A stretch of 64,000 bases of DNA from an uncultured Alphaproteobacteria bacterium (GTDB lineage Bacteria; Pseudomonadota; Alphaproteobacteria; Rs-D84): the NCBI GenBank assembly GCA_944389385.1, contig CALXMC010000001.1, positions 189,303-253,302 on the forward strand, given 5' to 3'. The notes beneath the pieces were generated by a model. It did not search any database. It was not told the DNA's origin and saw only the letters and a program-made list of their open reading frames with translations. The number at the start of each line of letters is the position of its first letter. Within the stretch, counting starts at the first letter, position 1. This document shows positions 8,871 through 55,052 of the stretch, piece after piece. A program made the position numbers and the translations under genes.

Positions 8871-8901
8871 AAAAAAACACCGGCATTTGCCGGTGTTTTT
8901 T
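8871..8901. terminator. Bidirectional intrinsic terminator, member of the CACCGGCAAATGCCGGTG hairpin family
   Basis: AAAAAAACACCGGCATTTGCCGGTGTTTTTT between convergent pheT and nth. Confidence 0.7.
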
Positions 8902-8910
8902 AATGTTTTT

Positions 8911-9573
8911 TTATACTGTTTTATCCGGCGCATTACACCAACGTGCAACCGGACATTCGCCGCATTTTGGTCGCAGTGCACGACAAATATAACGGCCATG
9001 TAAAACCATTACATGATTTACAATTGGATGATATTTTTTTGGAATGATTTTTAATAATTGTTCCTCGACTTTTTCTGGGGTATTTGCATCGGCCCCAACC
9101 CAAGCATACCGATGTGCATTGCGGAAAACGTGAGTATCAACACCTATGTTTGGCGCACCCCATAAAACATTCATTATAACATTTGCGGTTTTTTGCCCGA
9201 TGCCCGGCAATTTCATCAAAGCATCTCGATTATGATATTTTTTTGGAAATTTATAATTATCATCCGCACCATTTGTATCATTCATTAACGCCGCCGCCAA
9301 CCCCATGATACTTTTTGCCTTGTTGTTAAAGAAAGACAGTACACGAATGTGTCGCTTTAATCCATCTTCGCCCAATGCAATCATTTTAGCGGGCGACGGG
9401 GCGACGCGGAATAATTCGGGTGTGACCTCGTTTACTTTTTTATCGGTTGCCTGGGCGGATAAAATAACCGCCACAGCAAATGTGAATTCATTCACAGAAT
9501 ACAACTCCGACCGGATTGACATATCAACCACGGTCGGGACATGTGTGAAATAAATATCGGGCGTCAAAGTCAT
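8911..9573 (-). CDS. nth: Endonuclease III (DNA glycosylase/AP lyase, 4Fe-4S)
   Basis: HhH-GPD motif (LMKLPGIGQKTANVIMNVLWG) and C-terminal CX6CX2CX5C cluster; start at MTLTPDIYF (9573), long upstream extension rejected. Confidence 0.88.
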   Translation of the reverse strand: MTLTPDIYFTHVPTVVDMSIRSELYSVNEFTFAVAVILSAQATDKKVNEVTPELFRVAPSPAKMIALGEDGLKRHIRVLSFFNNKAKSIMGLAAALMNDTNGADDNYKFPKKYHNRDALMKLPGIGQKTANVIMNVLWGAPNIGVDTHVFRNAHRYAWVGADANTPEKVEEQLLKIIPKKYHPIVNHVMVLHGRYICRALRPKCGECPVARWCNAPDKTV

Positions 9574-9574
9574 T

Positions 9575-9958
9575 TTAATCCGCAAAAACAAACCCAGCCA
9601 AACGCCCTTCGCACAAAGTCTGGCAATTTGCCGAACATTCGTTACGAACTGCATCTTCACTGTCACCACTGATTTCGACGGTATCAACCCATACATTTTC
9701 ATGGGTTGCGTCGGACGCAAAGCATAAACAGCGTGATGTATATTGTTTTGATTCCTGGCGTTCGTCACGAACCACCTGGCCATCGACGGTTGCGAAACTG
9801 GCCGAATAACTTTCAGATACACCAATACCCGCACATTGTGATGTTATTACAACGTCGCGTTCTGCGGCATCCAATGTACCGACATAGAACCCAACCATGA
9901 ACACCAACAACATACCGATAACGCCTGCCATCCAATGCAACGAACTGTGTATATGCAT
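9575..9958 (-). CDS. Hypothetical small membrane-anchored Cys-rich protein (127 aa)
   Basis: Strong SD (AAGGAGG, 7 nt before ATG); N-terminal TM helix then a domain with 7 Cys (…RCLCF…ECSANCQTLCEG…); packed between ileS stop and nth start. Confidence 0.55.
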   Translation of the reverse strand: MHIHSSLHWMAGVIGMLLVFMVGFYVGTLDAAERDVVITSQCAGIGVSESYSASFATVDGQVVRDERQESKQYTSRCLCFASDATHENVWVDTVEISGDSEDAVRNECSANCQTLCEGRLAGFVFAD

Positions 9959-9972
9959 AATATCCTCCTTTT

Positions 9973-12999: not shown

Positions 13000-13125
13000 T
13001 TTAATATGCTCCTTTTGCGCGATTATAAAAAACGGGCGCCCATGCGCCCCAGCCACGTGCAGAAGCGCATGTGCCAGTTTATCTTATAATAATTATTGCC
13101 GTGTTATTCATGTTTATTTTATTCC

Positions 13126-13408: not shown

Positions 13409-13597
13409 GGTGCGAAAGCATCGTTATCTGGTGTAATGGTGTTTTTGCACCGTTATATCCCCGACATTTGGTCGGGGGGCCGTTGGTATACAACAGGTTT
13501 TACCAAAAACAGCGGAATCATCTAACAGATATGATTTATCAACTCCCCGACCGCCAAAAATATGTGGCGGTTTAACTTTTTTATAAAAGGAAAAAAT
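13409..13597 (+). ncRNA. Conserved multi-hairpin leader element, copy A (candidate cis-regulatory RNA or MITE)
   Basis: Shares an ordered series of hairpins with 41868-42056 (GGTGC-loop-GCAYC-GTTAT x2, CCCGAC-loop-GTCGGG, TGGTA-TACAACAGGTTT-TACCA, ATCAT-loop-ATGAT, CCGCC-loop-GGCGG); ends at the start codon of an OMP gene. Confidence 0.45.
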
Positions 13598-14185
13598 ATG
13601 AAAAAAATAATTCCTGTTGCATTATGTGCTGCATTTTTACCTGTGTATGGCTTTGCTGCGGACGCAACAACCAATACAACAAGTATATTTGATAATACCA
13701 GATTTTTTATTGAATACGGCGCATCGATATTTTCCAGCACTGGAACAAAAGAAAAACTGGATGGTGAAACGTTATCAGATGTTGATACAACATCGGTAAA
13801 TACTGGCACATCACTATCCATTGGTGCTGATTTTGATGGGATTCAATTGGCTTTTACTCCATCGTATTCAGATCAAGAAAGTATGTCGGTTACAGATTTA
13901 AGCTTGCAATTATTCGTTCCATTTATGGACACTAAATTACAACCATTTGTTTCATTATCTGCTGGTATTGGATTTGTCAGCATTGATTCATTAGATGTTG
14001 ATAATGAAATTGGTTTCAGTTATGGCATCGGTGCCGGAGTAAAGTACACATTTAATGACAATATGTATGTCAAGGTTGGTCTGGAATACGCTGGTGCATC
14101 ATTCAGTTTTGATGTATATGGGTATGATGCGGATATTAGTGCATCTGGATTCGGTTTAACGACCGGATTAGGGTACAGATTTTAA
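13598..14185 (+). CDS. Outer-membrane beta-barrel protein (OmpA/OmpW/Opa-like small barrel), signal peptide
   Basis: MKKIIPVALCAAFLPVYGFAADA signal peptide; alternating amphipathic beta strands; C-terminal …GLGYRF with terminal Phe. Confidence 0.7.
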   Translation: MKKIIPVALCAAFLPVYGFAADATTNTTSIFDNTRFFIEYGASIFSSTGTKEKLDGETLSDVDTTSVNTGTSLSIGADFDGIQLAFTPSYSDQESMSVTDLSLQLFVPFMDTKLQPFVSLSAGIGFVSIDSLDVDNEIGFSYGIGAGVKYTFNDNMYVKVGLEYAGASFSFDVYGYDADISASGFGLTTGLGYRF

Positions 14186-14188
14186 TAA

Positions 14189-14222
14189 TAAAAAACACCG
14201 GCATTTGCCGGCAAAAACCGGT
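14189..14222. terminator. Intrinsic terminator hairpin (CACCGGCATTTGCCGG family variant)
   Basis: AAAAAACACCGGCATTTGCCGGCAAAAACCGG after the OMP gene. Confidence 0.55.
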
Positions 14223-14262
14223 AAAAATGACGTATTATGAAAATTACATAAATATTATATGA

Positions 14263-14290
14263 AAAAGCCGGCATTTACCGGCTTTTTTTG
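14263..14290. terminator. Intrinsic terminator hairpin
   Basis: AAAAAGCCGGCATTTACCGGCTTTTTTT between OMP (+) and mnmG (-). Confidence 0.6.
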
Positions 14291-14296: not shown

Positions 14297-15946
14297 TTAA
14301 TTGCCGCATTTTATTTTGCGTAAAACAACCATTATGCCGGCCGGTGTCATACCCGGAATGCGCCCCAGGTCGGCGATATTTTCCGGCCGCGTGGCGGTTA
14401 ATTTTTCCACCAGTTCGTTGGTTAATCCCGGCAAACCCCGGTATTCAAAATTGACTGGTATTTTTAATTCTGCGTCACGCCGGTATGCCGCGATTTCGCG
14501 TTCGTTGCGCTGGATATACCCGGCATAGAATTTATCGTTTTCGCGAATTTTATCGGCGCGATATGCGTATTTTTCATCCCGCGCAGACGCATCCAACATC
14601 CCAAGTTCAACCGCCATATCCCCCAGTCGCGCAATTGCATTATCCGCCCGCAGACGTAACCGATATTCCGCACGTGATGTAAACATCCGATATGGTTCAT
14701 CCACCCCCAGTGTTGTAATATCGTCAATCAACACACCAATCATCGCGTTTGTTCTGTCCAGTTGCATCTGTGCCAACCCCAACGCACGCGCGGCGGCGTT
14801 ACAGCCCGCAACGATGCCTTGGGCGGCGGCCTCTTCATATCCAGATGTGCCGTTAATTTGCCCGGCAAAGAATAATCCCGGAATATCTTTGGATTCCAAT
14901 GTGTCGCGCAGCGCGCGTGCGTCAATTGTGTCATATTCAATCGCGTAACCATACCGCACGACGCGCGCGTTTTCCAATCCTGGAATTGTGCGAATCCACG
15001 CGTCTTGGACATCTGCGCCAAAACTTGTGGAAATACCGTTGGGGTAAATTAAATCACTGCGTATTCCCTCGGGTTCCAGAAAAACATGGTGCGATGTGTG
15101 TTCGGGAAAACGCATAACCTTGTCTTCTATACTGGGGCAATACCGCGGGCCAGTGCCACGAATGTCGCCGTTATACATCGGCGCATTAAGGATATTTTCA
15201 CGAATTAAATCATGCGTTTTTTGTGTCGTGTGCGTTATATAGCAAACGGCATCATAATTATTTGTCGGATTTGGTGCGCTGAACCAATCGTGTGGCGCGT
15301 CGCCCGGTTGCACTTCGCACACAGAATAATCTATGGACGATTTGTCGATACGCGCGGGTGTGCCTGTTTTCAGGCGCATAATTTTGAACCCGGCCGCCAC
15401 CAAAGCCCCCGATATATTTTCATCCGCCGCCTGGTATTCACCATCGTCCATGATGCGACCAGATGAAATTTTTTCGACCCCGCGTGTTACCAAGCCATTC
15501 AAAAAAGTCCCCGTGGTCAATACTATTGCGCGCGCGGCATATTCGCTGTTGATGCACATTTTCGCGACGTCCAGCGATTTAACTATTTCAAATTGCACGG
15601 TTAAATTCGGATAATCACGCAATATTTTAACGATTTCATTATGATATAATTCGCGATCGATTTGTGCGCGCAGTGCCTGGGTTGCCGCGCCATGTGATGC
15701 GTTTAACGTACGAAAATGAATTCCGGCCGCGTCCGCCGCGCGCCCCATAATTCCGCCCAGTGCGTCAATCTCAGCCACCATTTGTGATTTGCCCGGACCC
15801 CCGATAGACGGGTTGCACGACATAGCCCCCAAATCAGATTCGCGTTGGGTTATCAACAATGTACGCGCACCGCGCCGCGCAGATGCACATGCGGCCTCGA
15901 CCCCGGCATGTCCGCCACCAATAACGATTACATCAAATGATTTCAT
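14297..15946 (-). CDS. mnmG: tRNA uridine 5-carboxymethylaminomethyl modification enzyme MnmG (GidA)
   Basis: [24 protein letters not shown]… FAD-binding N-terminus, …[18 protein letters not shown]…, C-terminal [11 protein letters not shown]; 549 aa is shorter than typical. Confidence 0.88.
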
Positions 15947-17616: not shown

Positions 17617-18186
17617 TTATCTGACGGGCACGATTTTGTCGATGTTTTTTACTTTGTCTGTATCGCGCCGCATTGAAAACTCGCACCCACAGTATTTTTG
17701 CCGATAAAAATCAGACGCACGATTTATCTCGCACCGCAACCCCTCGTCCCATTTAATGGGAATGTATTGGTCAGACAAAGCGGAATACCCTGCTCTATCT
17801 ACTTGGGATTGGTCTTTGTGGCGTGATACCCCGAATACAGACGTAACCGCATCATAACCATGCTCGGCCGCCCACCGGCGCGCGTATTCAAATCTGAATT
17901 TGAAACACGCGCTGCACCGCACACCGCGTTCGGGGGCATCTTCCATCCCGCGTACTGCGTCGCGCCATGCCGCGTGGTCATATTCGCCGATGGCATATTT
18001 TACCCCCATTTTTTCACAGTACCGTATTTGTTCTGCCAATCGTTTATCATATTCGGCGGCCGGGAAAATATTTGGGTTAAAAAACAACACAATAAAATCA
18101 TCCACCCCAGGGATTTGCCCGTCGGCCAGTTGTTTTATCGCGCCCGCGCTGCACGGCGCACAGCAAGACATTAAAACCAGTTTCAT
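17617..18186 (-). CDS. queH: Epoxyqueuosine reductase QueH (DUF208)
   Basis: MKLVLMSCCAPCS…FFNPNI…C..C…GCEFS Cys motifs typical of QueH; overlaps metG stop by 4 nt. Confidence 0.75.
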   Translation of the reverse strand: MKLVLMSCCAPCSAGAIKQLADGQIPGVDDFIVLFFNPNIFPAAEYDKRLAEQIRYCEKMGVKYAIGEYDHAAWRDAVRGMEDAPERGVRCSACFKFRFEYARRWAAEHGYDAVTSVFGVSRHKDQSQVDRAGYSALSDQYIPIKWDEGLRCEINRASDFYRQKYCGCEFSMRRDTDKVKNIDKIVPVR

Positions 18187-20577: not shown

Positions 20578-20760
20578 AAAACTATTACAAAGCGCACAAA
20601 TTATACCAAACAAATTTCAGATTGCAATATTAAATTGTTTTTATTCGGCTTTATTCGATTAAAACACACATTTGACTTTGTCATTCCCAGGCGACGTGTC
20701 GCGTGGGTGATTGGGGCGTGTGTGTGGGGAAATACGTGACTAGTCACTTAGTCCCTTAAC

Positions 20761-20947
20761 TTGTCATTCCCGCGCCCGGGGTCCCCGCAAATACGAACGT
20801 ATTTGTGGGGTGGTTAAGGCGGGAATAGGGTCTATTAAATTTGTTATGTGGATTACATATAAATAAAAACACAACGCTGAATTATTCCCCTGATTAAATA
20901 ACTAATAACAACCCAAGCCCTATTCCCGCCTGCGCGGGAATGACAAA
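20761..20947. mobile_element. MITE-like element with 15-bp perfect terminal inverted repeats and nested internal palindromes
   Basis: TTGTCATTCCCGCGC … GCGCGGGAATGACAA termini; inner IR GGCGGGAATAGGG/CCCTATTCCCGCC; internal hairpin CCCCGCAAATAC-GAAC-GTATTTGTGGGG; right end reads ATTCCC-N8-GGGAAT. Confidence 0.5.
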
Positions 20948-20970
20948 CATAGTAAATACGTGATTATATT

Positions 20971-21291
20971 TTATACATCGACCATATTTTTTATATATTC
21001 ATCCAGCCCGACGGCCAAATCATCCCAATTGGGATTCATTGTTTCTATTAACCTATATTTCCAAGCGCGATTCCATTTTTTTAATATCTTTTCGCGTTTT
21101 ATAGCGTCGTCTATGTATTTGTAATGTTCAAAATATGCCAACTTATCAATTTTATGTGTTTTTGTATATCCGCGAATTAACCCCATTTTATGTTCTATCA
21201 TACGGCGTTCCAGATTATTTGTAACGCCAATATAGGTTGCCTTGGCGCGTTCATTAAATAATATATAAACCCAGAAATGATATTCTTTCAT
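20971..21291 (-). CDS. GIY-YIG nuclease family protein (YhbQ/UPF0213-like small endonuclease)
   Basis: …YHFWVYILFNERAKATYIGVTNNLERRMIEHKMG…YTKTHKIDKLAYFEHYKYIDDAIKREKILKKW… GIY-YIG pattern; an alternative upstream start at 21327 is possible. Confidence 0.65.
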   Translation of the reverse strand: MKEYHFWVYILFNERAKATYIGVTNNLERRMIEHKMGLIRGYTKTHKIDKLAYFEHYKYIDDAIKREKILKKWNRAWKYRLIETMNPNWDDLAVGLDEYIKNMVDV

Positions 21292-21363
21292 ATAATACAG
21301 AGTATAAAAAATACTCTTATATAACAATAATTTTAGTTCATAAATATAACGAAAATTTTTAAC

Positions 21364-21393
21364 AAAAACACCGGCGATTGCCGGTGTTTTTTT
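21364..21393. terminator. Bidirectional intrinsic terminator (CACCGGC…GCCGGTG family)
   Basis: AAAAACACCGGCGATTGCCGGTGTTTTTTT between the GIY-YIG gene and accC. Confidence 0.65.
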
Positions 21394-22750
21394 ATTTCTT
21401 TTCTTTTTCAGATTTCAAATAAGATTCCAACCAATGATTATCAAAATTCAGCGTTTTTACATCGCGATTTTTTAATAATTTTTGCTGTAACGGAATCGTT
21501 GTTTTTACGCCTTCGATAACAAATTCGTCCAACGCACGTGTTGCACGCATTATGCACGCCGGCCGCGACGGCGCATGCACAATCAATTTTGCAATCATAG
21601 AATCGTATGTCGGCGGAATAGTGTATCCTGTATAAACGGCACTATCCACGCGCACGCCCATCCCACCCGACGGCGCATACAGCGTTATTTTGCCCGGATT
21701 TGGGATAAAGTTTTCTGGGTCTTCGGCATTTATGCGGAATTCAATCGCATGACCGTGTGGAACGACATTAGATTGCGTATATCCCAATTTTTCACCGGCC
21801 GCGACGCGAATCTGTTCGCGCACCAAATCAACACCATAAACCATTTCAGTAACAGGATGTTCAACCTGCAAACGCGTATTCATTTCCAAGAAATAAAATT
21901 TGCCATCTTCGAACATAAATTCGAACGTACCCGCATTGACATATCCCATTTTTTTTGCGGCGTTTTTACAGATTTCAATCATATCGTCGCGCTGTTTCTG
22001 GGTCAGAATTGCGGCGGGGCATTCCTCCATAACTTTTTGATTTTTGCGTTGCAGCGAACAATCGCGTTCGCCAAAAATCACAACATTGCCATGTGTATCG
22101 CCCAATACCTGGAATTCAATATGACGCGGATGCAACAATAATTTTTCCATATACAGTGTATCATCGCCGAATCCAGATTTAGCCTCGTTCTTTGTCATTT
22201 GAAACGCTTCGGCCATCTGGTCGGCATTCATAACCGGACGAATGCCGCGCCCACCGCCACCTGCGGCGGCCTTTAACATAACGGGATAACCGATTTTTTC
22301 GGCCCACGCATACGCATCTTCCAACGTTTCAACCGCGCCATCAGACCCCGGCACAACGGGCAATCCGCATTCGATAGCGGTGCGTTTTGCATTAACTTTA
22401 TCGCCCATTTTTTCAATCATGGCGGCCGACGGCCCAATCCAGATTAAACCATGTTGTTCAACTTTCTGGGCAAAATCTGCACGTTCGGATAAAAATCCGT
22501 AACCCGGGTGAATTGCGTCCGAATTGGTCAATAACGCCGCGGTTAAAATCGCAGATTCATTCAGATAAGAATCCTTGCTGGGGCCCGGACCGATACACAC
22601 AGATTCGTCCGCCAATTGTACATGCATGGCGTTTTTATCGATGGTTGAATATACTGCAACCGTGCGAATACCCATATCGCGGCACGCGCGAATAATACGC
22701 AGCGCGATTTCCCCGCGATTGGCAATCAAGACTTTTTTTATTTGAGACAT
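21392..22750 (-). CDS. accC: Acetyl-CoA carboxylase biotin carboxylase subunit
   Basis: MSQIKKVLIANRGEIALRIIRACRDMGI… ATP-grasp, 452 aa. Confidence 0.93.
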   Translation of the reverse strand: MSQIKKVLIANRGEIALRIIRACRDMGIRTVAVYSTIDKNAMHVQLADESVCIGPGPSKDSYLNESAILTAALLTNSDAIHPGYGFLSERADFAQKVEQHGLIWIGPSAAMIEKMGDKVNAKRTAIECGLPVVPGSDGAVETLEDAYAWAEKIGYPVMLKAAAGGGGRGIRPVMNADQMAEAFQMTKNEAKSGFGDDTLYMEKLLLHPRHIEFQVLGDTHGNVVIFGERDCSLQRKNQKVMEECPAAILTQKQRDDMIEICKNAAKKMGYVNAGTFEFMFEDGKFYFLEMNTRLQVEHPVTEMVYGVDLVREQIRVAAGEKLGYTQSNVVPHGHAIEFRINAEDPENFIPNPGKITLYAPSGGMGVRVDSAVYTGYTIPPTYDSMIAKLIVHAPSRPACIMRATRALDEFVIEGVKTTIPLQQKLLKNRDVKTLNFDNHWLESYLKSEKEKK

Positions 22751-23912: not shown

Positions 23913-25055
<1,143 letters not shown>

Positions 25056-25058
<3 letters not shown>

Positions 25059-25088
25059 AAAAAACACCGGCAAATGCCGGTGTTTTTT
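25056..25088. terminator. Bidirectional intrinsic terminator (AACACCGGCAAATGCCGGTGTT)
   Basis: A8-CACCGGCAAATGCCGGTG-T6 between convergent mreB and the ABC permease. Confidence 0.7.
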
Positions 25089-26304
25089 ATTCATAACGTA
25101 AACTGTCAATCGGGTTTAATTTTGCGGCCTTCATTGCCGGCATAACGCCGGACGCCAACCCGACAACCACTGCGACCGTAACGGATACTATTACCGGCCA
25201 CATACTGAACGGCACTTCGTAATCCATTATGAAACGCCCGACACCCTGGGACAGACCAACACCCAATACCAATCCAATCATAGACCCCATAAACGATATC
25301 AAAATCGCTTCGGACAAGAACTGGATGATGATATGTTTTTCGCGTGCGCCAATGGCTTTGCGTATGCCAATTTCGCGCGTGCGTTCCGCAACCGACACCA
25401 ACATCATATTCATAATGCCAATTGATCCCACCAACAGCGACACCGCCGCAATCGCGATTAACAGCATTGTCATATAACCGGTTACGGTATCCATGGCCTC
25501 CATAACTTGTTTCATATCCATAATTTGGAAATCATCGGCTTCGTCATCGGCCAATTTATGCCGGTCGCGCAGCAGTGCGGTTATCTGTTCAATTGCCAAC
25601 GCGTTATCTGCATTATCAGTCAGTTTCAATGTGACCATATTAACCGAGTTTGGAAAACGGCTGCCCTGCAAACGTTTTTTCAGTGTGGTAATTGGGATAA
25701 TAATCATATCGTCCTGGCTGCCCATTGTGGAATCGCCGCGTTCTTTTGTGACGCCGATAATGGTAAAGGGCATATTTTGCACGCGGATAATTTCGCCAAC
25801 TGGGTTTTCAGGCATTTGTAATTCTTCGGCCGTCTGGGGTCCGATAATGGCGTATGTTGAACCATTGCGCACGGCAGACTGATTAAAAAACGTGCCGTAT
25901 TTCATTTCCAGATTTTGCACTTGTTCATAACCTGGGTATGCACCAACCATGGACGTTGCCCAGTTTTGATTACCATAAATAACCTGGGCGGCGGCATTTT
26001 GTACGGGACTGAATGCGGCGACATCGGGCAATTGACCGATGAATTCAGCATCTTGGATAGTTAAAGTTTGTCGATTTCCCGTACGCACCCCCGCGCTTTG
26101 CGCCGCGCCTGCGCGAATCATAATTGTCCCAGTCCCCAAGGACGAAAACTGGTCGCTGATTTGTTTTGACACCGTTTCACCAACTGCAACCATTATCACC
26201 ACGGCCATAACGCCGATAATAATACCCAACACGGTTAAAAAAGAACGAACCTTATTCCCGCTGATGGACAGCCAAGATTCTTTGAAAATATCATTAAAAG
26301 TCAT
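25087..26304 (-). CDS. ABC transporter permease, MacB/FtsX family
   Basis: 405 aa; N-terminal TM, large periplasmic domain, C-terminal FtsX-like 3-TM bundle; downstream of cognate ATPase. Confidence 0.82.
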   Translation of the reverse strand: MTFNDIFKESWLSISGNKVRSFLTVLGIIIGVMAVVIMVAVGETVSKQISDQFSSLGTGTIMIRAGAAQSAGVRTGNRQTLTIQDAEFIGQLPDVAAFSPVQNAAAQVIYGNQNWATSMVGAYPGYEQVQNLEMKYGTFFNQSAVRNGSTYAIIGPQTAEELQMPENPVGEIIRVQNMPFTIIGVTKERGDSTMGSQDDMIIIPITTLKKRLQGSRFPNSVNMVTLKLTDNADNALAIEQITALLRDRHKLADDEADDFQIMDMKQVMEAMDTVTGYMTMLLIAIAAVSLLVGSIGIMNMMLVSVAERTREIGIRKAIGAREKHIIIQFLSEAILISFMGSMIGLVLGVGLSQGVGRFIMDYEVPFSMWPVIVSVTVAVVVGLASGVMPAMKAAKLNPIDSLRYE

Positions 26305-27146: not shown

Positions 27147-27175
27147 AAAAAAAACACCGGCAAATGCCGGTGTTA
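27147..27175. terminator. Intrinsic terminator hairpin (AACACCGGCAAATGCCGGTGTT) inside the efflux gene cluster
   Basis: On the minus strand the hairpin is followed by T8; located between the adaptor gene and the ATPase gene. Confidence 0.6.
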
Positions 27176-27180: not shown

Positions 27181-28362
27181 TTACCGTGGCGGTCCCATTC
27201 GTGCGGATCCGGTTGATGCCAATCCATACCGACCGAATATAATCCTGTCGCCATCCTGGATTTGGTCGGAAATAATCTCGGTCTCGGTTGCAGTAACCAA
27301 ACCTTTTTCGTATGGCACCAGTACAACGGTTTGCACACCATCAACCATGCGTTGGATTGCCAAATGGTCGGACGGTGTCGCATCACCTGCATTTTCGACA
27401 ATTCCGTCAAAATTGCGCAGTATTAACGCAGAATTTTGCACTTTCCATACGTCAATTTTTTCAGAGATTAAAATTGTCACGAACGCGGTCATACCGGGTT
27501 TCAGACGCAAATCAGAATTATCCACGTCAATGACCACGGTATATACCACAACGTTTGACGTAATTGTTGGTGACAAACGAACCTGGCGCACGGTGCCTTC
27601 GAACGTCTGGGTTGGATACGCATCAACCGTAAATGTCACGGGCAATCCTTCGGTAATCATACCAATGTCGGCCTCGGACACGGCGGTTTCAATTTGCATT
27701 TTCGATAAATCTTCGGCGATTTCGAACAAATCAGGCGTCTGGAACGATGCCGCAACGGTTTGCCCAACGTCAACCTGGCGTGAAATAACTGTGCCATCAA
27801 CGGGGGATGTAATCGTTGCATAACCCAAATTTGTTACCGCACGATCATATTGCGACTGCATACGTTTAACGGACTGTTCGGCTTGTTCGTATGTGGTCAA
27901 AGATTGTTCTAATTCGGCACGTGGAATAATATCGTCTTCGTATAATATTTTATTGCGTTCGTATTCACTTTTTGCATAGTTGCGTTGTGATTCTGCACTG
28001 ACCAGTGATGCCTTGGCTTCGTCCACTGATGCCTGTAATACGGACGGTTCGATTTCCAATAATACATCACCCTTTTTCACCTTGGAATTATAATCGACAT
28101 AAATCGCCTCGATGGTTCCACTGACCTGGGAACCAACGTTAATGGTGTTCAAAGGTTGAATTTCACCCGTTGCGGTCACAACCTGGCGCAGGTTTCCGCG
28201 CGATATTGTCGCAGTTGCAAATCCGGTGCCTTGGTTTTCACCACCACCCATAAAATACAGAAATCCACCCGCCACAACAATGAATAAAATAATCCACCAT
28301 TTACGACGCCGTACCCAGTTCCAAAATCTGTGTTGTTTCGGTTGTTTTTGTTCCTTATTCAT
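27181..28362 (-). CDS. Efflux periplasmic adaptor (HlyD/MacA family)
   Basis: N-terminal TM, biotinyl-lipoyl-like and coiled-coil hairpin regions, 393 aa; between TolC-like and ABC genes. Confidence 0.82.
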   Translation of the reverse strand: MNKEQKQPKQHRFWNWVRRRKWWIILFIVVAGGFLYFMGGGENQGTGFATATISRGNLRQVVTATGEIQPLNTINVGSQVSGTIEAIYVDYNSKVKKGDVLLEIEPSVLQASVDEAKASLVSAESQRNYAKSEYERNKILYEDDIIPRAELEQSLTTYEQAEQSVKRMQSQYDRAVTNLGYATITSPVDGTVISRQVDVGQTVAASFQTPDLFEIAEDLSKMQIETAVSEADIGMITEGLPVTFTVDAYPTQTFEGTVRQVRLSPTITSNVVVYTVVIDVDNSDLRLKPGMTAFVTILISEKIDVWKVQNSALILRNFDGIVENAGDATPSDHLAIQRMVDGVQTVVLVPYEKGLVTATETEIISDQIQDGDRIIFGRYGLASTGSARMGPPR

Positions 28363-29794: not shown

Positions 29795-29868
29795 GGCCTG
29801 GTGGCAGAGTGGTTATGCAGAGGACTGCAAATCCTTGTATGCCGGTTCGATTCCGACCCAGGCCTCCA
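29795..29868 (+). tRNA. tRNA-Cys (anticodon GCA)
   Basis: GGCCTGG-TG-GCAGAGTGGTTATGC-AGAGGA CTGCAAA TCCTTGT-ATGCCGGTTCGATTCCGAC-CCAGGCC-T-CCA. Confidence 0.85.
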
Positions 29869-30104
29869 AAAAATAAAACGCCCCTGTGGCGTTTTGTTTT
29901 TTGGAAATATGGGATGTCATCGAACCGGCCCGGTTCGCATATGAGTCAGATTTTTCAAGCGCCCTGCGCGCCGAAAAAGCCATACGAATGGTGAGTCAAG
30001 TTGCGCCAGCAACGGTTTTTGCCGCACATGCCGGCAAAAATGCGAACTTTCCGACCCAGGCCTCCAAAAAATAAAACGCCCTTGTGGCGTTTTGTTTTTT
30101 GGAA
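29851..30104 (+). repeat. 56-bp tandem direct repeat (tRNA-Cys 3' end plus its terminator) flanking a 141-bp spacer
   Basis: TTCCGACCCAGGCCTCCAAAAAATAAAACGCCCYTGTGGCGTTTTGTTTTTTGGAA at 29851-29906 and again at 30048-30104. Confidence 0.75.
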
Positions 30105-31703: not shown

Positions 31704-31730
31704 AAACACCGGCAAATGCCGGTATTTTTT
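31703..31730. terminator. Bidirectional intrinsic terminator (CACCGGCAAATGCCGGTA variant)
   Basis: AAAAACACCGGCAAATGCCGGTATTTTTT between convergent sspB and gpsA. Confidence 0.65.
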
Positions 31731-34798: not shown

Positions 34799-34930
34799 TT
34801 TCACATGAAATAACATGTAATCTTTTGAAATTACTCAAAAAGTAAAAAATAATAATTTTGCCGGCAAAAACGCACAAAAATGTCGTTTTGGCCGGCGGGT
34901 GTTTGTTGTGTGTTATTTCATGTGAAATAA
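34797..34930. repeat. Pair of 19-bp inverted repeats (TTTCACATGAAA core) flanking a long hairpin upstream of parA; parS-like sites or MITE termini
   Basis: AATTTCACATGAAATAACA (34797-34815) and its reverse complement TGTTATTTCATGTGAAATA (34911-34929); each core is a near-palindrome 1-3 mismatches from the parS consensus TGTTTCACGTGAAACA; central hairpin GCCGGCAAAAACG…CGTTTTGGCCGGC. Confidence 0.45.
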
Positions 34931-35815: not shown

Positions 35816-36703
35816 ATGACGACTAAATTTGGAATGGGGCGCGGATTGGCGGATATTAAACAGGAAATGGGTAATATACCCGATATATCGGTATTAACCG
35901 GGGCAGGGCGCGTTGTTGTAAAACAAATCCCACTGGCGCAAATTGGCGCGAATCCGGACCAACCGCGTAAAACATTTACAGAATCGGAATTGGCGGATTT
36001 GACGGCGTCCATTCGCGAACGCGGTGTGTTACAACCGATTTTATTACGTGCCGTGACGGGACGTCCGTATATGTATGAAATTGTGGCGGGCGAACGCAGA
36101 TACCGCGCCAGTAAATTGGCGGGATTGACGGAAATTCCCGCGTTGGTTAAACAAATTACGCCTGAAAACGCGATGGAAATTGCGTTGATTGAAAATGTAC
36201 AACGTGAAAATTTGAACCCGGTCGAGGAATCTGCTGCGTATAAAAATATAATGGAAAAGTGTGGATATGAATTGGCGGATGTTGCCAGGTTAATAGGCAA
36301 ATCAGAAAGTTACATTCGCAATTTAATCCGTTTGGATGATTTGCCGGCCGATGTAAAGCAAATGGTGGCGCGTGGGGATATATCTGCGTCGCACGCGCGC
36401 ACGATTGCGGTTGCTGAAAATCCGACCGAATTGGCGCGTGCAATTGCGGAAAAACATTTATCGGTTGCAGATACTGAAAAAATGGTGCGCGCCGCGCCAC
36501 GTCGTGCTGCATCGCGTGCACATACATCAAAAACGATTGACGCGGCCACCGTTCGCGAAATAGAGGCCAAAATCAGCAACGTGTTTGGCGCACCTGTTAA
36601 ATTGCGCGAAAAGCGGGGTGGGGCGGGGCAGATAATTTTTGAATTTGCCACCCGCACACAAATGAATGAATTGGTTGATAAATTGGTTAATCATAACGCA
36701 TAA
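35816..36703 (+). CDS. parB: Chromosome partitioning protein ParB (Spo0J)
   Basis: ParB-N with GERRYRAS motif, HTH, C-terminal dimerisation domain; 295 aa. Confidence 0.92.
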   Translation: MTTKFGMGRGLADIKQEMGNIPDISVLTGAGRVVVKQIPLAQIGANPDQPRKTFTESELADLTASIRERGVLQPILLRAVTGRPYMYEIVAGERRYRASKLAGLTEIPALVKQITPENAMEIALIENVQRENLNPVEESAAYKNIMEKCGYELADVARLIGKSESYIRNLIRLDDLPADVKQMVARGDISASHARTIAVAENPTELARAIAEKHLSVADTEKMVRAAPRRAASRAHTSKTIDAATVREIEAKISNVFGAPVKLREKRGGAGQIIFEFATRTQMNELVDKLVNHNA

Positions 36704-36713: not shown

Positions 36714-36746
36714 AAAAGGCCGGCAAAAGCCGGCAATTTTTATATT
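36714..36746. terminator. Intrinsic terminator hairpin
   Basis: AAAAAGGCCGGCAAAAGCCGGCAATTTTTAT downstream of parB. Confidence 0.6.
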
Positions 36747-36770: not shown

Positions 36771-36800
36771 AAAAAACACCGGCAATTACCGGTGTTTTTT
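36771..36800. terminator. Bidirectional terminator (CACCGGCAATTACCGGTG family member)
   Basis: AAAAAACACCGGCAATTACCGGTGTTTTTT between parB and pal. Confidence 0.65.
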
Positions 36801-36818: not shown

Positions 36819-37235
36819 TTATTTAACTGTTGTTGTGGCATTACGATTCCATTTCCAAACTTCTTCGCCAGTACCCTGGACCAACGGACGTTCTTTGCCG
36901 TATGAAATTGTGGAAATACGCGATGGTTCGATACCGTCGTCAACCAAGACGGCCTTGGCCGCATTGGCACGACGTGCGCCCAATGCCAAATTGTATTCCG
37001 ATGAACCACGTTCGTCGCAATTACCAGCAATCTGGATTTTTGTATCCGCGTGATTTTTCATATACAGCGATTGACCCAACAGGTTATCGCGTGCCTCGTC
37101 CGAGATTTCATATGAATCGAACGCAAAATATACGCGTTGATCGTTCAAATCAGCCGGTTCAACGATTGTAGAACCACCACAGGCGGCCAACAAACCCGCA
37201 ACACTAGCCAACATAGCAAAGTTTTTTATTTTCAT
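36819..37235 (-). CDS. pal: Peptidoglycan-associated lipoprotein Pal (OmpA-like domain)
   Basis: Lipobox LLAAC; OmpA-C domain (…FDSYEISDEARDNL…NCDERGSSEYNLALGARRANAAK…); 138 aa. Confidence 0.85.
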   Translation of the reverse strand: MKIKNFAMLASVAGLLAACGGSTIVEPADLNDQRVYFAFDSYEISDEARDNLLGQSLYMKNHADTKIQIAGNCDERGSSEYNLALGARRANAAKAVLVDDGIEPSRISTISYGKERPLVQGTGEEVWKWNRNATTTVK

Positions 37236-38125: not shown

Positions 38126-38674
38126 ATTAAACCGCAAATTAACCGTGATAATCGTCGGGATACGGGCCCGCGTGTAAACAATCGGATTTTTGCTAAATCC
38201 GTCCAGGTAATCGATGAAAATGGCCAAAATTTGGGCGTTATGCAGACGTCTGATGCGTTGAACATGGCGATGGATGCAGGGCTGGATTTGGTTGAGATCA
38301 GTTCAAATGGCACAACGCCGATTGTTAAAATAATGGATTTTGGCAAGTATAAGTACGAGCAGAAAAAACGTGCGTCCGAGGCCAGAAAGAATCAAAAAAC
38401 GGTCGGTATGAAGGAGGTTTGGGTAAAGCCTTTTATCGAAGAAAACGACCTGAATATAAAAATGAAAAAAGTTTTTGAATTTCTGGGGGATGGCAACAAA
38501 GTCAAAGTTGCTGTGATGACCCATGGTTCGAAAAAGGTTTTGGCACGGGGCAGGGATGCCGTACCGGAATTATTCGCGCGAATAATGGAAATTGTGGGCG
38601 ATCGTGGGACTTTGGAATCAAAATCAAAGCCCGATGAACGCACGAAATCCATTATAATTGCGCCTGCGAAATAA
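38126..38674 (+). CDS. infC: Translation initiation factor IF-3 with non-canonical AUU start codon
   Basis: In-frame translation from ATT at 38126 gives IKPQINRDNRRDTGPRVNNRIFAKSVQVIDENGQNLGVM…, the canonical IF3 N-domain, preceded by AAAAGGAG SD; the C-domain ORF (38231-) lacks this N-domain otherwise. Confidence 0.85.
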   Translation: MKPQINRDNRRDTGPRVNNRIFAKSVQVIDENGQNLGVMQTSDALNMAMDAGLDLVEISSNGTTPIVKIMDFGKYKYEQKKRASEARKNQKTVGMKEVWVKPFIEENDLNIKMKKVFEFLGDGNKVKVAVMTHGSKKVLARGRDAVPELFARIMEIVGDRGTLESKSKPDERTKSIIIAPAK

Positions 38675-38678
38675 AAAC

Positions 38679-38705
38679 GCCCGATTGGGCGTTTTTTTTA
38701 TGACC
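38679..38705 (+). terminator. Intrinsic terminator after infC
   Basis: AAAAACGCCCGATTGGGCGTTTTTTTT. Confidence 0.7.
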
Positions 38706-41510: not shown

Positions 41511-41538
41511 CAATCGCCCAACGGGCGATTTTATTTTG
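41511..41538 (+). terminator. Intrinsic terminator after tRNA-Val(UAC)
   Basis: AATCGCCCAACGGGCGATTTTATTTTG (same stem as the terminator after rpsO at 63958). Confidence 0.6.
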
Positions 41539-41867: not shown

Positions 41868-42056
41868 CGGTGCGATTTGCATCGTAATCCGTTTCGCAGA
41901 TGGTGCATTTCGCATCGTTATGCCCGACGTTTTGGTCGGGCGTCTGGTGTTATACAACAGGTTTTACCAAAAGCATCGGGATCATTCGTGTTATGATTTT
42001 GAAAACGCCCGACCGCCATTTCTGTGGCGGTTAATTTTTATAATGGGGTTAATATC
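41868..42056 (+). ncRNA. Conserved multi-hairpin leader element, copy B
   Basis: Same ordered hairpin series as 13409-13597 with identical TGGTR-TTATACAACAGGTTT-TACCA module; ends at the start codon of the glycosyltransferase gene. Confidence 0.45.
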
Positions 42057-50496: not shown

Positions 50497-52899
50497 ATGG
50501 CGACATTAACACTCGGAAAATCTGTAACAATTGATCAAGTGGCCAGCAAAAAGGGCGACGCTGTGTTTGTTGAACGGCGTCGTCGCGTTGTTGCCCCCGG
50601 CAGTAAAGAACTGCGTGAAGAGCCTGTCGCGCCCGCGCCAACCCATAATGCGGCCGATGAAAAATTGCGCGCTGTATTAGAGGCGGCCCGCGCCCGCGAA
50701 GAAGAACGCCGGCAAAAGGCTGCGGCCGAAGCTGCCGCAACTGCCGCGCGCGAAGCGGAAATTGCCCGCGAAAATCGCGAGTATGAACAGGTAAAAGAAC
50801 AATTGGCTGCGCGTGAAAATGTCGCCAACATACCGCCCGCCGAAGAAATTGACGTAATAAAATCCGTCCAACCGCAGAAAAAACAACATTCCCAGCAATC
50901 GTCGCGTGCGCGTCAAAACCGCGATGACGATGAAGATATGGGTATGTCGCGCGCGTCCAAATTTGGTAACGGTAAAAAAGAATTCAAAAAAACAGGCAAG
51001 ATTTCGTTGCACGACATTGTCATTGGCGGTGATGATGATGACGATGATGAAATCGGGCTGCGTGGTGCAAATCGCCGTCGTTCCGAAGCGTCACTGAAAC
51101 GTTTCCGTGAAAAAGCGCGCGCGGTATTTTCCGCCCCGCAAAAGGTTGAACGTGTTGTGACATTGGGCGATACGATAACCGTCAAAGATTTGGCATCTGC
51201 CATGGCTGAAAAGGTTGGCAATGTTATCAAAAAACTGATGGAAATGGGTATGATGGCATCACAAAATCAAACAATTGACGCCGATACAGCCGAACTGATT
51301 GCGGGCGAATTCGGGGCCAAGGTTAAACGTGTTGATGTAAAGCCTTACTCGGACCAATTGGAACGCCAACCAAATCCAGAAAACATGCAGCCCCGTCCGC
51401 CGGTTGTTACGGTTGTGGGGCATGTCGACCACGGAAAAACGTCATTGTTGGATGCGTTTCGTCATGCGAATGTTGCTGCGCGCGAAGCGGGTGGCATTAC
51501 CCAACATGTTTCTGCATACGAAGTTAAAACAAAATCTGGCGCGATGATTACGTTTTTGGATACACCGGGTCATGAAACATTTACCGCCATGCGTGCGCGT
51601 GGTGCGCAAATGGCGGATATTGTCGTTTTGGTCGTTGCGGCAAACGATTCCATTATGCCCCAGACAATCGAAGCCATTAACCACATTCGTGCCGCCAAAG
51701 TACCGTTTATTGTTGCAATTAACAAAATCGATTTGCCCGATGCCGATCCAACACGCGTCAAAACAGACCTGTTACAGCAAGAGGTCCAAGTCGAAGAACT
51801 GGGGGGTGATGTTCAGTGTGTTGAAATATCCGCCACAAAACATATCGGATTGGATAAACTGGAAGACGCGATTTTATTACAGGCCGGTATCATGGATTTA
51901 CGTGCAGATCCCGATATGCCCGCCGTTGCATACGTGGTCGAGGCGAAAATGGAACGTGGCCTGGGGGCAACGGCAACCATTTTAATGCGCCAAGGTACAT
52001 TAAGCATCGGCGATGTGTTTGTCGTGGGCGAAACGTATGGTCGTGTACGTGGTTTAATAAATTCTGGGGGTGAACGTGTAAAATCTGTCAAACCGGGTCA
52101 GCCTGCGGTTGTGTTGGGACTGAATGCCGTTGCGCGTGCGGGCGACGAATTGCATGTTATGGAAACCGAGGCTCAAACGCGCGAGGTTGCCGCATATCGC
52201 GTCCAGCAGGCCAAAGATCGTGCCAACGCAGTAAAACGTTCTTCGTTACAGGAATTGTTTGCCAAGCGCGACGAAACGAAAAAATTGGTATTGCCGATTG
52301 TTCTGCGCGCCGATGTCCAGGGCAGTGTCGAGGCCATCACAGATATGTTAAAAGACATCCATACGGACAAGGCTTCGGTCGATATTTTATCGTCTGGGGT
52401 TGGACAAATTACCGAAGGCGACATTCGTTTGGCGGCGGCATCGGGCGCAATTATAATCGCGTTTAATGTGCGCGCCGATTCTGTTGTGCGTGATATGGCG
52501 CGCAGTTCTGGTGTTGACATCCGTTATCACAGCGTTGTGTATCGTATCACAGACGAAGTCAAAGAAATCTTGTCCGGAAAATTGGCGCCTGAACGCAAAG
52601 AAAACTTTATCGGATACGCGGATGTTATTGCATTGTTCACTGTTGGCAAAGGCGTCCGTGTTGCGGGTTGCCGTGTGTCCGAGGGCGTAATTAAAAAAGA
52701 CGCCTTTGTGCGTTTGTTGCGCGACAACGTTGTTATTTACGATGGTAAGATTGGCGAACTGCGTCGTGAAAAGAACGAAGTTCGTGAAGTATCAGGTGCC
52801 GGGGTTGAATTCGGTATGTCATTTGATAAATATAATGACCTGAAAGAAGGCGATCGCGTCGAATGTTACGAGGTCGAAGAAATTCGTGCCCAGTTGTAA
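50497..52899 (+). CDS. infB: Translation initiation factor IF-2
   Basis: 800 aa; G-domain [16 protein letters not shown] … DTPGHETF … NKID; follows nusA. Confidence 0.95.
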
Positions 52900-52928
52900 T
52901 AAAAATACCGCCATTTGGCGGTATTTTT
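52900..52928. terminator. Bidirectional terminator (TACCGCCATTTGGCGGTA variant of the family)
   Basis: AAAAATACCGCCATTTGGCGGTATTTTTAT between convergent infB and der. Confidence 0.65.
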
Positions 52929-54267
52929 ATTTATCATCAAATGGATTTTCATCCTTTTTATACTCGACAATAATCGGTAAATGTTCCCATTTCAGTGCAT
53001 TTGCCAAACCACGACGCAGATAACGCGTGTACGATTCAGGAATATCAGACGCACCGCCCACATTTATGGTAATTTTCATCGGATGCCGCCCCGTTTGACG
53101 CGCAAATTTTATTTTCATGGGGCGTTTTAACCGCGACATAGGCGGTTGTCTGTCTGCAACCAGTTTTTCAACAATACGGTTGATTAAACTGGTTGGTGCA
53201 TCAGTATTTGATATATCCCATTGCTCGTATATCCGGCGGAACATATTTTTAACGCCACTGCCCATTTCGGCCGATATTGCCAATATCAGCGGTTTGATTA
53301 TTTGATGAAAAGAATTCGTAAATTGGTGTTTTAATTTTAACAATTTTTCGTCACGTAACTCGGGTGCGACCAAATCCCATTTGTTCAACGCGACGCATAA
53401 AATTTTGCCTGCATCATATACGCGTGCCGCGATTCCCAGTGCTTGGTTTTCGATATTGCGTGTGGCATCCACAACCAAAATAACAACGTCTGATTTTTCA
53501 ATTGCATCCAACGATTTTAACGCAGACAACGTTTCCACATCATCAGTCACGCCCGCTTTGCGCCGCAATCCAGCCGTATCCATTAACACAATATCGCGAC
53601 CATAAAAGTTGGTCGGGATTTTTACCGTGTCGCGTGTAACACCCGGCTTGTCAATAACAATTTGACGTTTTTGCCCCAGTACTTGGTTTACCAGTGTCGA
53701 TTTACCAACGTTTGGTTGACCCATAATTGCGATTTTTAATTTTTGTGTAGTGTTGGTTTTGGCGTCATTCTTTTTTGATTCGTTTGGACTTATTTTATCG
53801 ACAAATTCATATATTGCATCGAAACCGATTTTATGTTCAGCCGAAATCTGGACCGGTGCCCCAAAGCCCAATTTATAAAAATCACTTAAATCAGCCATAC
53901 GGCGGCCAGATTCGGATTTATTTGCAACCAACATAACGGGCGCGCGTGTTTTTCGGCGCACTGCGCGTGCCCAATCCATATCCGCAGGCATCAACCCCAC
54001 GCGTCCATCGACAACAAATAATATTGCATCTGCACCTGCGATGGCATCCATCGCCACATTTGTGGAATCTGCGGCAATCCCAGATTTTGCATTTTCCAAC
54101 CCCGCCGTGTCGACGATTTCCCACATTCGGTCGCGCATATTACCCACAATTGTGTCGCGTGTGACACCTGGGCGATCATGCACCAACGCATCGCGTGTCC
54201 CCGTCAGGGCATTAAACAAAGTCGATTTGCCGGTATTTGGCCGGCCTGCTATTATAAGTTTTTGCAT
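52927..54267 (-). CDS. der: GTPase Der (EngA), tandem GTP-binding domains
   Basis: Two G domains (GRPNTGKSTLFN … GQPNVGKSTLVN) plus KH-like C-terminus. Confidence 0.92.
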   Translation of the reverse strand: MQKLIIAGRPNTGKSTLFNALTGTRDALVHDRPGVTRDTIVGNMRDRMWEIVDTAGLENAKSGIAADSTNVAMDAIAGADAILFVVDGRVGLMPADMDWARAVRRKTRAPVMLVANKSESGRRMADLSDFYKLGFGAPVQISAEHKIGFDAIYEFVDKISPNESKKNDAKTNTTQKLKIAIMGQPNVGKSTLVNQVLGQKRQIVIDKPGVTRDTVKIPTNFYGRDIVLMDTAGLRRKAGVTDDVETLSALKSLDAIEKSDVVILVVDATRNIENQALGIAARVYDAGKILCVALNKWDLVAPELRDEKLLKLKHQFTNSFHQIIKPLILAISAEMGSGVKNMFRRIYEQWDISNTDAPTSLINRIVEKLVADRQPPMSRLKRPMKIKFARQTGRHPMKITINVGGASDIPESYTRYLRRGLANALKWEHLPIIVEYKKDENPFDDK

Positions 54268-54333
54268 AATTTTTTCCGTTGATTTTTTATAATTATAAAG
54301 CAAAAATATAAATAATCAAATTGGGGGAACAGG

Positions 54334-54930
54334 ATGATGAAAAAAATAAAAAATGGATTAAGAAAACTGCGTGATTTAATAATCAAACCGAAACGGTATT
54401 TTACCCGTATTGTTGCCGACGGCAATATGGAAGAGGCTATGTTAAAAGCCTTTATATACGGTCTGTTGGGTGGATGCTTGGTATTATTACTGCGGTTGAT
54501 TGGCGGGGCAACGATTACGATTGGGTCTGTATTTACAGCGTTAATAATTGTGCCGGTGTTGGCGGTGGCGTTATTGTTTGTGTTGGGCGGCCTGATGATG
54601 TTGGTGTCTGAAATCACGGGCGGGGAACGCGATTGGGAAATCGCCATCAAGGGTCTGGCGTCTGTGTTTTTTGTATATCCAGTTGTACTGGTTTTGAACG
54701 CATTGGCGTTTAATTGCACGTCGATATGGATAATCAGTTTATTGGTTGATGCGTACGTATTGTTCCTGTTTTACAATATTGCGCTGTACTGCATGCGCGG
54801 CAAACGCAGCAATGTTTTGATAGTGATTGCTATATTTGCGTTGTTTTTAATCACGATATACGCGACAGATTACCGTATTGGTTGGTTTATGTTGAAAAAC
54901 ACCAGTGCGACATTATCGTGCATGTTGTAA
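54334..54930 (+). CDS. Yip1-domain polytopic membrane protein (hypothetical)
   Basis: 198 aa, about 5 TM helices; sits between der and the tail-fibre gene on the strand opposite to the surrounding operon. Confidence 0.55.
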   Translation: MMKKIKNGLRKLRDLIIKPKRYFTRIVADGNMEEAMLKAFIYGLLGGCLVLLLRLIGGATITIGSVFTALIIVPVLAVALLFVLGGLMMLVSEITGGERDWEIAIKGLASVFFVYPVVLVLNALAFNCTSIWIISLLVDAYVLFLFYNIALYCMRGKRSNVLIVIAIFALFLITIYATDYRIGWFMLKNTSATLSCML

Positions 54931-54990
54931 TTGTATGCTTGATTTTTATTGCGTTTTGTGATACAATGCGCATACAGAATTAGGGGGGCG

Positions 54991-55052
54991 GGTTCACATG
55001 TTTGTGAACCTGTTTTTTTTTAACAGACGCGGCAATTTGCCGCATTTTTTTT
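54991..55052 (+). terminator. Two tandem intrinsic terminators after the Yip1-like gene
   Basis: GGTTCACATGTTTGTGAACC plus T8, then GCGGCAATTTGCCGC plus T8. Confidence 0.6.

Follow-up and report, generated by a model that had tools for sequence, protein, structure and literature searches.

A conserved palindromic hairpin at gene ends of uncultured gut Alphaproteobacteria: a probable family of compact bidirectional terminators

The window examined here is a stretch of 64,000 nucleotides from an uncultured Alphaproteobacteria bacterium (GenBank assembly GCA_944389385.1, contig CALXMC010000001.1, positions 189,303 to 253,302); throughout the text "the window" means this whole 64-kb stretch. Several of its intergenic regions carry nearly the same palindromic hairpin between an A-run and a T-run, which raises the question of why one hairpin sequence should be found again and again at gene ends. 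The original prediction took these hairpins for bidirectional terminators that belong to a dispersed repeat family, similar either to repetitive extragenic palindromes (REP) and bacterial interspersed mosaic elements (BIME) or to uptake signals. Our best reading is that they probably represent a clade-wide, mainly vertically inherited family of compact bidirectional intrinsic terminators.

The host, an uncultured gut alphaproteobacterium, belongs to the Rs-D84 / Candidatus Enterousia group, whose genomes are reduced; Enterousia has been placed in the order Rs-D84, with reduced genomes of about 0.75-1.6 Mb (PMC12306168). Loci from related genomes are designated by L-numbers. One of them, L003, a 236-kb human-gut metagenome scaffold, shows 100% identity to the window over 21 kb, and five other strains are about 98% identical to it.

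The hairpin family in the window and in related genomes

The consensus A5-8–CACCGGC–N4–GCCGGTG–T5-8 is present in canonical or near-canonical form at seven intergenic sites of the window. When the 18-mer was searched with up to 3 mismatches, we obtained 15 strand-hits in the window against 0.17 expected, and none of 100 shuffled sequences reached 15. The stem consists of 7 bp, six of which are G-C pairs; the 9-bp stem described originally is obtained only if the AA/TT pairs are counted. The coordinates proposed at that time were accurate to within 1 nt, and seven of the nine sites named then are the seven given here; one more (52901) is possibly a diverged copy, one (55029) is unrelated, and two sites (14262 and 36719) had been missed. 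The two missed sites (14262-14289 and 36719-36734) belong to a GCCGGC subtype that retains the CCGGC core and differs in its outer bases. The copies in the window are as follows.

8871-8901, unstranded: canonical copy AAAAAAACACCGGCATTTGCCGGTGTTTTTT between the convergent genes pheT (6563-8866, + strand) and nth (8911-9834, - strand)
14190-14217, - strand: degenerate copy AAAAAACACCGGCATTTGCCGGCAAAAA with right arm GCCGGCA, downstream of mnmG
14262-14289, unstranded: GCCGG-subtype copy AAAAAGCCGGCATTTACCGGCTTTTTTT between an open reading frame (ORF) of 207 aa (13562-14185, + strand) and mnmG (14297-15946, - strand)
21364-21393, unstranded: copy with a canonical stem and a GATT loop, at the 3' end of accC (21392-22750, - strand)
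25057-25088, unstranded: canonical copy between the convergent genes mreB (23997-25058, + strand) and macB (25087-26304, - strand)
27147-27174, - strand: canonical copy inside the tolC-macA-macB operon, after macA (27181-28362, - strand)
31703-31730, unstranded: copy with one arm mismatch (GCCGGTA) between the convergent genes sspB (31233-31703, + strand) and gpsA (31734-32600, - strand)
36719-36734, + strand: GCCGGC-AAAA-GCCGGC subtype followed by a T-run, just after parB (35816-36703, + strand)
36771-36800, unstranded: copy AAAAAACACCGGCAATTACCGGTGTTTTTT at the 3' end of an OmpA/Pal-like gene (36819-37235, - strand)
52901-52928, unstranded: candidate diverged member AAAAATACCGCCATTTGGCGGTATTTTT between the convergent genes infB (50497-52899, + strand) and der (52927-54303, - strand)

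For the canonical copy at 8871-8901 the RNA fold energies of the two strands are -22.5 and -24.7 kcal/mol (z about -6). The degenerate copy at 14190-14217 gives a G.U-containing hairpin followed by U6 on the - strand only, and in L059 the same junction is occupied by one canonical bidirectional copy. The stop codon of accC adjoins the T-run of 21364-21393, a hairpin kept in five other strains, and at 25057-25088 both TAA stop codons are part of the A- and T-runs. An innermost C/A mismatch in the copy at 36771-36800 results in a 6-nt loop. The candidate at 52901-52928 (TACCGCC-ATTT-GGCGGTA) shares the loop and the architecture but differs in 2 of 7 stem pairs, both compensated; it may be a diverged family member, since canonical copies are found elsewhere at the infB end (L076 and L093) and at the der end (L015). 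In a small sample from within the species, five strains of about 98% identity, the hairpins vary only in homopolymer length and by one 1-nt change.

Adjacent to the accC copy the window carries a strain-specific insertion of about 725 bp (20635-21359) with a GIY-YIG nuclease ORF (20971-21327, - strand). The insertion begins 4 nt beyond the hairpin; it is also present in L003 and is absent from five other strains.

We then scanned species-representative genomes for AACACCGGC-N4-GCCGGTGTT, which matched at least 119 stretches. At least 57 of these belong to at least 45 different genomes of uncultured gut and rumen Alphaproteobacteria, labeled as Candidatus Enterousia, 'uncultured Rickettsiales' or 'proteobacterium RUG'. 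Among the matches listed, 40 of the 66 copies from these clade loci have the loop AAAT or ATTT and 10 have GTTT or AAAC; most loops other than AAAT/ATTT are one step away, and the conservation of the loop spans local GC contents of 0.32-0.54. The same stem is found once each in 62 unrelated bacteria among the matches listed, where the loops are assorted (ATTT in 1 of 62, AAAT in none). The copies in unrelated bacteria are ordinary terminators that share the stem by chance, and because their loops are assorted, the conserved loop can be regarded as the signature of the family. The finding of the hairpin, with its conserved loop, in 45 or more related species supports the proposal of a dispersed family. 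The two loop orientations occur equally often relative to the transcript, with few AATT or ATAT intermediates; as a conjecture, this parity would fit inversion of the loop across the palindrome.

A sequence logo of 83 copies, taken from the window and from the clade loci among the matches listed, shows conservation over A5-stem-loop-stem-T5 and none beyond. Since nothing is conserved beyond the A/T-runs, the unit is limited to about 28-30 nt, and we rejected the idea that it belongs to a larger mobile element. No Rfam family matched at the gathering threshold, the only matches being sub-threshold ones to terminator parts of small RNA (sRNA) models; viral contigs contained no exact motif matches, and the motif string was not found in the literature searched.

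The family is also recognizable in a set of loci that was assembled independently of the motif, namely the window and eight ParB-anchored loci (ParB identity 74-82%), about 231 kb altogether. The CCGG core is present there in 35 of 83 terminator-like hairpins (about 40%), and the AAAT/ATTT loop accompanies 22 of these 35 as opposed to 2 of the 48 hairpins of other classes. This association of core and loop points to shared ancestry or to a sequence-specific reader, and it bears on the idea that the stem-loop evolved separately at each site as the optimal terminator of the lineage, with no family by descent. Such independent convergence is made conceivable by the fact that the same stem with A/T-runs is a single ordinary terminator in dozens of unrelated bacteria, and is thus generally workable, and by the fact that a two-way terminator must be fully Watson-Crick paired, which leaves fewer choices. 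However, the assorted loops of the unrelated bacteria show nothing general that favors AAAT/ATTT, and equally G+C-rich stems (CGCCC, CCCGC, CGGGG) terminate in the same genomes with variable loops. We consider convergence quite improbable.

The excess of the motif is nearly all contained in complete palindromes, which goes against the suggestion that it is an uptake signal. According to that explanation, biased uptake and recombination would maintain the sequence and inverted pairs would double as terminators, as is the case for the uptake signal sequences (USS) of Pasteurellaceae and the DNA uptake sequences (DUS) of Neisseriaceae. We counted single half-sites outside hairpins against a third-order Markov expectation. 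In 432 kb of clade DNA there are 20 occurrences of AACACCGGC (10.6 expected) and 15 of ACACCGGCA (8.7 expected), and in the window there are 3 (1.3 expected) and 2 (0.9 expected), respectively, that is, at most about twice the expectation. To our knowledge, a palindrome-only uptake signal has no precedent. By comparison, the USS 7-mer of H. ducreyi occurs 1371 times against 140 expected, an approximately ten-fold excess (PMC1852404). The sole coding-region match (33288-33305, with 3 mismatches) is attributed to chance; it falls within the coding sequence of a TPR gene, in a conserved part where comparison with six orthologs reveals no insertion. Of the approximately 52 window ORFs, the 30 scanned against NCBIfam and Pfam included no competence genes, and the published account of Rs-D84 genomes mentions such genes and type IV pili in another lineage only (PMC12306168). 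It is true that an arbitrary sequence is kept clade-wide and is concentrated in terminators, as for USS and DUS (DUS are present in about 55% of Neisseria terminators, and the corresponding figure for Pasteurellaceae is 17-29%; PMC1852404), and that uptake drive would account for the conserved loop without selection on RNA. Nevertheless, we regard an uptake signal as highly improbable.

Gene-end context and anatomy of the putative terminators

The copies form stable hairpins on both strands, with energies of -19 to -25 kcal/mol when the flanks are included and z of -5 to -7. The 4-5 positions that follow the stem are T in 77-82 of 83 copies, with a mirror A-run on the upstream side. We classified the gene context of 81 copies from the window and the 57 clade loci (among the matches listed): 58 are located between convergent genes, 21 between tandem genes and only one between nominally divergent genes, against a background of 99 convergent, 258 tandem and 84 divergent gene pairs. 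The nominally divergent copy is actually located at the 3' end of a pal gene that was overlooked by crude gene calling. The copies are thus found almost exclusively at gene 3' ends.

The distance from stop codon to stem has a median of about 13-14 nt (estimated by eye), and the stop codon therefore abuts the A/T-run or lies within it. At tandem sites both runs are usually retained. In four tandem cases one run has shrunk to 3 nt or fewer, always on the side from which no gene is read into the hairpin; one of the four is 27147-27174, where the - strand has U8 and the + strand lacks a T-run. Anatomy, location at convergent and tandem 3' ends, and the loss of a T/A-run only on the unused side all speak for the terminator reading.

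We propose that the cassette, a palindrome of 28-30 nt that can be written as A5-8 / CACCGGC / AAAT or ATTT / GCCGGTG / T5-8 with the core CCGGC-AWWT-GCCGG, would function as a compact Rho-independent terminator that reads alike on both strands. RNA polymerase arriving from either side would transcribe the 7-bp G+C stem and the tetraloop and then the U-tract, whereupon the transcript would be released. With release possible from either side, one 30-nt unit could close two convergent genes located 25-45 bp apart, whose TAA stops would lie in or against the A/T-runs. In its anatomy, a G+C-rich hairpin between an A-tract and a T-tract at tail-to-tail genes, such a unit resembles ordinary bidirectional intrinsic terminators. 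The stem and loop sequences of ordinary terminators are not shared, however, whereas here one core and loop recur in about 40% of the terminator-like hairpins of the motif-independent loci, and the family spans at least 45 species.

Inheritance, clustering and the uniformity of the family

The same hairpin is found at orthologous ends of mreB, gpsA, pheT, pal, macA, sspB and infB, in species with protein identities of 60-95%, and it persists even where the convergent partner gene differs. In L047 and L104 the pheT end has canonical copies, the hairpin follows mreB in L074, L081, L102, L068 and L109 next to different partner genes, and canonical or near-canonical copies follow macA in L122, L036 and L109. 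Variants also stay with their genes. The GCCGGTA variant of sspB is identical in L128, though the partner gene there is macB; the CAATTA variant at the end of the OmpA/Pal-like gene recurs in L127, with canonical copies at this gene end in at least 8 species; and the GCCGGC subtype accompanies parB in many species (GCCGG-type hairpins are found at the parB end in L036, L038, L102 and L126-L131). Gene-linked variants and orthologous ends argue for mainly vertical inheritance. Copies would have spread in an ancestor of the Rs-D84 / Candidatus Enterousia lineage and would then have been mostly inherited vertically, with slow erosion that chiefly affected the outermost C-G pair and produced the TACCGGC, AACCGGC and AGCCGGC forms, and with some copies lost or replaced by hairpins with other stems. 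Both the first spread of the family and the way in which it stays uniform are inferred here.

Several observations weigh against the reading of the hairpins as an inherited family of terminators. Termination activity is inferred from anatomy and location. The hairpin class at one gene end can differ between species: at the mreB end it is CACCGGC in the window, CGGGG in L126 and L128, and GCCGGC in L127, and at the infC end it is CGCCC in the window as opposed to CACCGGC in four other species (L036, L038, L101 and L015). Class differences between fairly close species imply that replacement, or terminator sharing after rearrangement, also occurs, and there is thus some replacement or copying at gene ends by a mechanism that the terminator account does not specify. 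Furthermore, purifying selection on structure only leaves the conserved loop and the small number of compensated stem variants unexplained; such variants are rare at protein divergences where neutral sites are saturated. G.U pairs are unusable in a two-way hairpin, which makes the constraint on the stem tighter but does not explain the tetraloop.

The distribution of copies is a further point of this kind. In the window the CCGG-core copies are all located at 8.9-36.8 kb, and none were found in the window at 37-64 kb or in the 9.7 kb past its right end. Among the matches listed, 32 of the 57 motif-ascertained clade loci (56%) are orthologous to window genes, where about 7% would be expected for a 64-kb region of a 1-Mb genome, and the other 25 are spread over about 20 different sites. 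Regional clustering is not predicted by a plain terminator model, although better conservation of origin-proximal sites explains part of it. The density is 1 copy per 7-9 kb in the window; with the ascertaining copy removed, extra copies occur about once per 12 kb in window-orthologous loci and about once per 27 kb elsewhere. As a rough estimate, these locus densities suggest approximately 40-60 copies per genome of about 1 Mb.

The window encodes parA, parB, rsmG, mnmG, recF, rnpA, mreB, accBC, pheST, infB, nusA, pnp and further housekeeping genes, and its GC-skew minimum is located at about 28-32 kb; parAB, mnmG and recF together with this minimum identify it as the replication origin region. 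A parS-like palindrome, TATTTCATGTGAAATA, is located at 34914-34929 between rsmG and parA, upstream of parA, and is found in the same place in related species; along with the GC-skew minimum, it is a marker of the origin region. The clustering near parAB gave the idea that the hairpin itself might be parS, which was rejected since the hairpin is unlike the 16-bp parS palindrome TGTTNCACGTGAAACA and a separate, canonical-like parS is present.

Class switching at one gene end between species could also be understood if the hairpin were a REP-like non-autonomous mobile element, copied by a hairpin-recognizing HUH/Y1 transposase of the RAYT or IS200/IS605 TnpA type, with termination as a by-product or a secondary co-option. 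The length of about 30 nt, the palindromic form, the multiple copies and their extragenic 3' location fit this explanation, as do the retention of the full symmetric cassette even at one-way sites, the joint travel of core and loop, and the tandem pairs at 14190/14262 and 36719/36771. Nevertheless, the hairpin lacks a GTAG-like end and any conservation beyond the A/T-runs, and the copies are single hairpins and not REPIN doublets of fixed spacing. It is conserved across an order, at GC contents of 0.32-0.54, whereas REPs are species-specific, and its many orthologous sites across species indicate vertical inheritance. No Y1-transposase-like ORF was found among the window ORFs scanned (30 of about 52, NCBIfam/Pfam); tblastn of 1.3 Mb of DNA with an approximate E. 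coli RAYT query, which is a weak test, gave no match. The motif itself has no matches in viral contigs. The comparison with REP/BIME made originally is limited to size and extragenic 3' location; the hairpins lack a GTAG-type end and REPIN doublets, no RAYT was seen in the ORFs and the 1.3 Mb searched, conservation extends across a whole order instead of being confined to one species, and the U-tracts are canonical. We consider a mobile element of this type unlikely.

The conservation of stem and loop sequence beyond structural need, and the concentration of copies near the origin/parAB region, could also reflect recognition by a lineage-specific protein. It would bind either the DNA, at a nucleoid, gyrase or recombination site, or the RNA hairpin, as a termination factor or a factor protecting 3' ends of the kind proposed for the TRIT hairpins of Mycobacterium, and its sequence-specific recognition would hold stem and loop constant. 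For TRIT, possible extra machinery was likewise inferred from sequence conservation (Gardner et al. 2011, PMC3152330). However, no candidate protein was identified and the hairpin is not parS; the equal frequency of both loop orientations argues against an asymmetric reader of the RNA loop, and with canonical U-tracts an extra termination factor is unneeded. A protein site is therefore, in our view, an unlikely explanation as well. Doubtful, but worth keeping in mind, is a lineage-specific factor that reads the palindrome by sequence and thereby keeps it uniform, be it an RNA 3'-end or termination protein or a DNA copying, recombination or uptake activity; if true, it would explain the conserved tetraloop, the class switching at gene ends and the concentration near the origin.

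Gene order around the hairpins is variable. In L126-L133, as compared with the window at 21-37 kb, hairpin-bounded blocks (mreB-rnpA-accBC, macAB, tolC-macA, recF-sspB) are permuted or inverted at ParB identities of about 75-82%, and the entire mreB..macB block, flanked by sspB and gpsA, has opposite orientations in L128 and L127. The junction hairpins differ between arrangements, so these inversions do not demonstrate recombination between hairpin copies. Nor do lineage 'dialects', such as AACCGGC at three sites in L129, speak for concerted evolution, because parallel GC-to-AT erosion of the outermost pair can account for them. Long G+C-rich structured intergenic inserts that are absent from the window are present in L126 (12839-13248) and L128 (18889-19385); they contain CCCCTCC...GGAGGGG-type inverted repeats, and the one in L128 also contains a short tandem repeat (GAGTAAC).

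Other features of the window, known systems and significance

Terminators of other classes are present in the window next to those of the family.

38673-38699, + strand: CGCCC-class terminator after infC, not a member of the family
41512-41530, + strand: AATCGCCC-AAC-GGGCGATT, the "second family", after tRNA-Val, with orthologous copies in L127 and L130
55029-55043, + strand: GCGGCA-ATT-TGCCGC followed by a T-run, an ordinary terminator with a different stem and loop
63958-63984, unstranded: AAAAATCGCCC-GTAT-GGGCGATTTTTT after rpsO, with the stem of 41512 and a different loop

The hairpin at 55029-55043 was rejected as a family member because of its different stem and loop, and a 3-mismatch match at 2833, within a PBP2 gene, was attributed to chance. 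A second, smaller family with an N4 loop had also been predicted. It does exist at 41512 and 63958, but the loop at 41512 has 3 nt (AAC) and the loops vary; the ATCGCCC stem of both sites belongs to a looser CGCCC class with variable loops. A loose extension of this second family includes 38673-38699, 29875-29895 and 30073-30093. The last two intervals fall within a direct repeat of 56 bp (29851-29906 and 30049-30104, copies 198 bp apart), which consists of the last 16 nt of tRNA-Cys and a CGCC-type terminator and resembles the att scar of an integrated element. In L108 a similar duplication, of a tRNA end and a canonical hairpin, has its copies 1.3 kb apart.

Two structured elements on the + strand (13470-13560 and 41934-42022) resemble the Rfam family sRNA-Xcc1 (RF02221) below threshold, with bit scores of 38.8 and 42.3 where the gathering score is 53 (the second has E = 4e-6). 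The two elements share 84% identity, with a compensated change in the outer helix, and are located directly upstream of ORFs, one for the 207-aa protein without known function and the other for a GT2 glycosyltransferase. The QueH encoded at 17617-18186 of the window has 189 aa; in other strains of this species QueH has 362 aa and is fused to a DUF559/MTES_1575 nuclease-like domain. Immediately past the right end of the window, L134 (11194-13416) encodes a 740-aa type IV secretion coupling protein (VirD4/TraG-like) that adjoins rpsO.

Among known systems, the nearest precedent in kind is TRIT of Mycobacterium, a set of palindromic hairpins at gene termini conserved in both sequence and structure. 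Like the hairpins described here, these are mostly bidirectional, tightly placed with respect to stop codons, restricted to a genus or order, and present in dozens to about 150 copies (147 for TRIT; PMC3152330). The two families differ in sequence and phylum, the hairpins described here have canonical U-tracts on both sides, and they have no Rfam match. Terminators formed by inverted USS or DUS pairs (Kingsford et al. 2007, PMC1852404; for DUS dialects see PMC3630211) are alike in that a clade-specific sequence occupies many terminator stems across a family or order. Their half-sites of 9-12 nt, however, are also found singly and within genes, with at least a ten-fold excess, whereas here only whole palindromes at gene ends are in excess, and conservation extends to the loop.

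The REP/BIME and REPIN-RAYT systems share with our hairpins the form of short (20-40 nt), multi-copy extragenic palindromes at the 3' ends of transcription units; the flanking A/T-runs of a canonical terminator, the occurrence as single hairpins and the order-wide sequence set ours apart. Another comparison is offered by the Rickettsia palindromic elements, which are dispersed palindromic repeats in reduced alphaproteobacterial genomes. Those elements are approximately 100-150 bp long and are often inserted in frame into genes, whereas the hairpins described here have 30 nt and are strictly intergenic, the lone coding match being due to chance.

If the reading as an inherited family of bidirectional terminators is true, this would be the third case, after TRIT and the USS/DUS terminators, in which the sequence of a terminator is conserved in a lineage beyond its structure. 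As the half-site signature of uptake is absent here, the question of what force keeps such families uniform becomes sharper. The motif could be used as a marker for operon ends and gene orientation in the annotation of metagenome-assembled genomes of this clade, and it is a candidate compact bidirectional terminator part. For the bacteria themselves, it would mean that one standard two-way stop of 30 nt punctuates a large part of the operons across an order of uncultured gut bacteria with reduced genomes.

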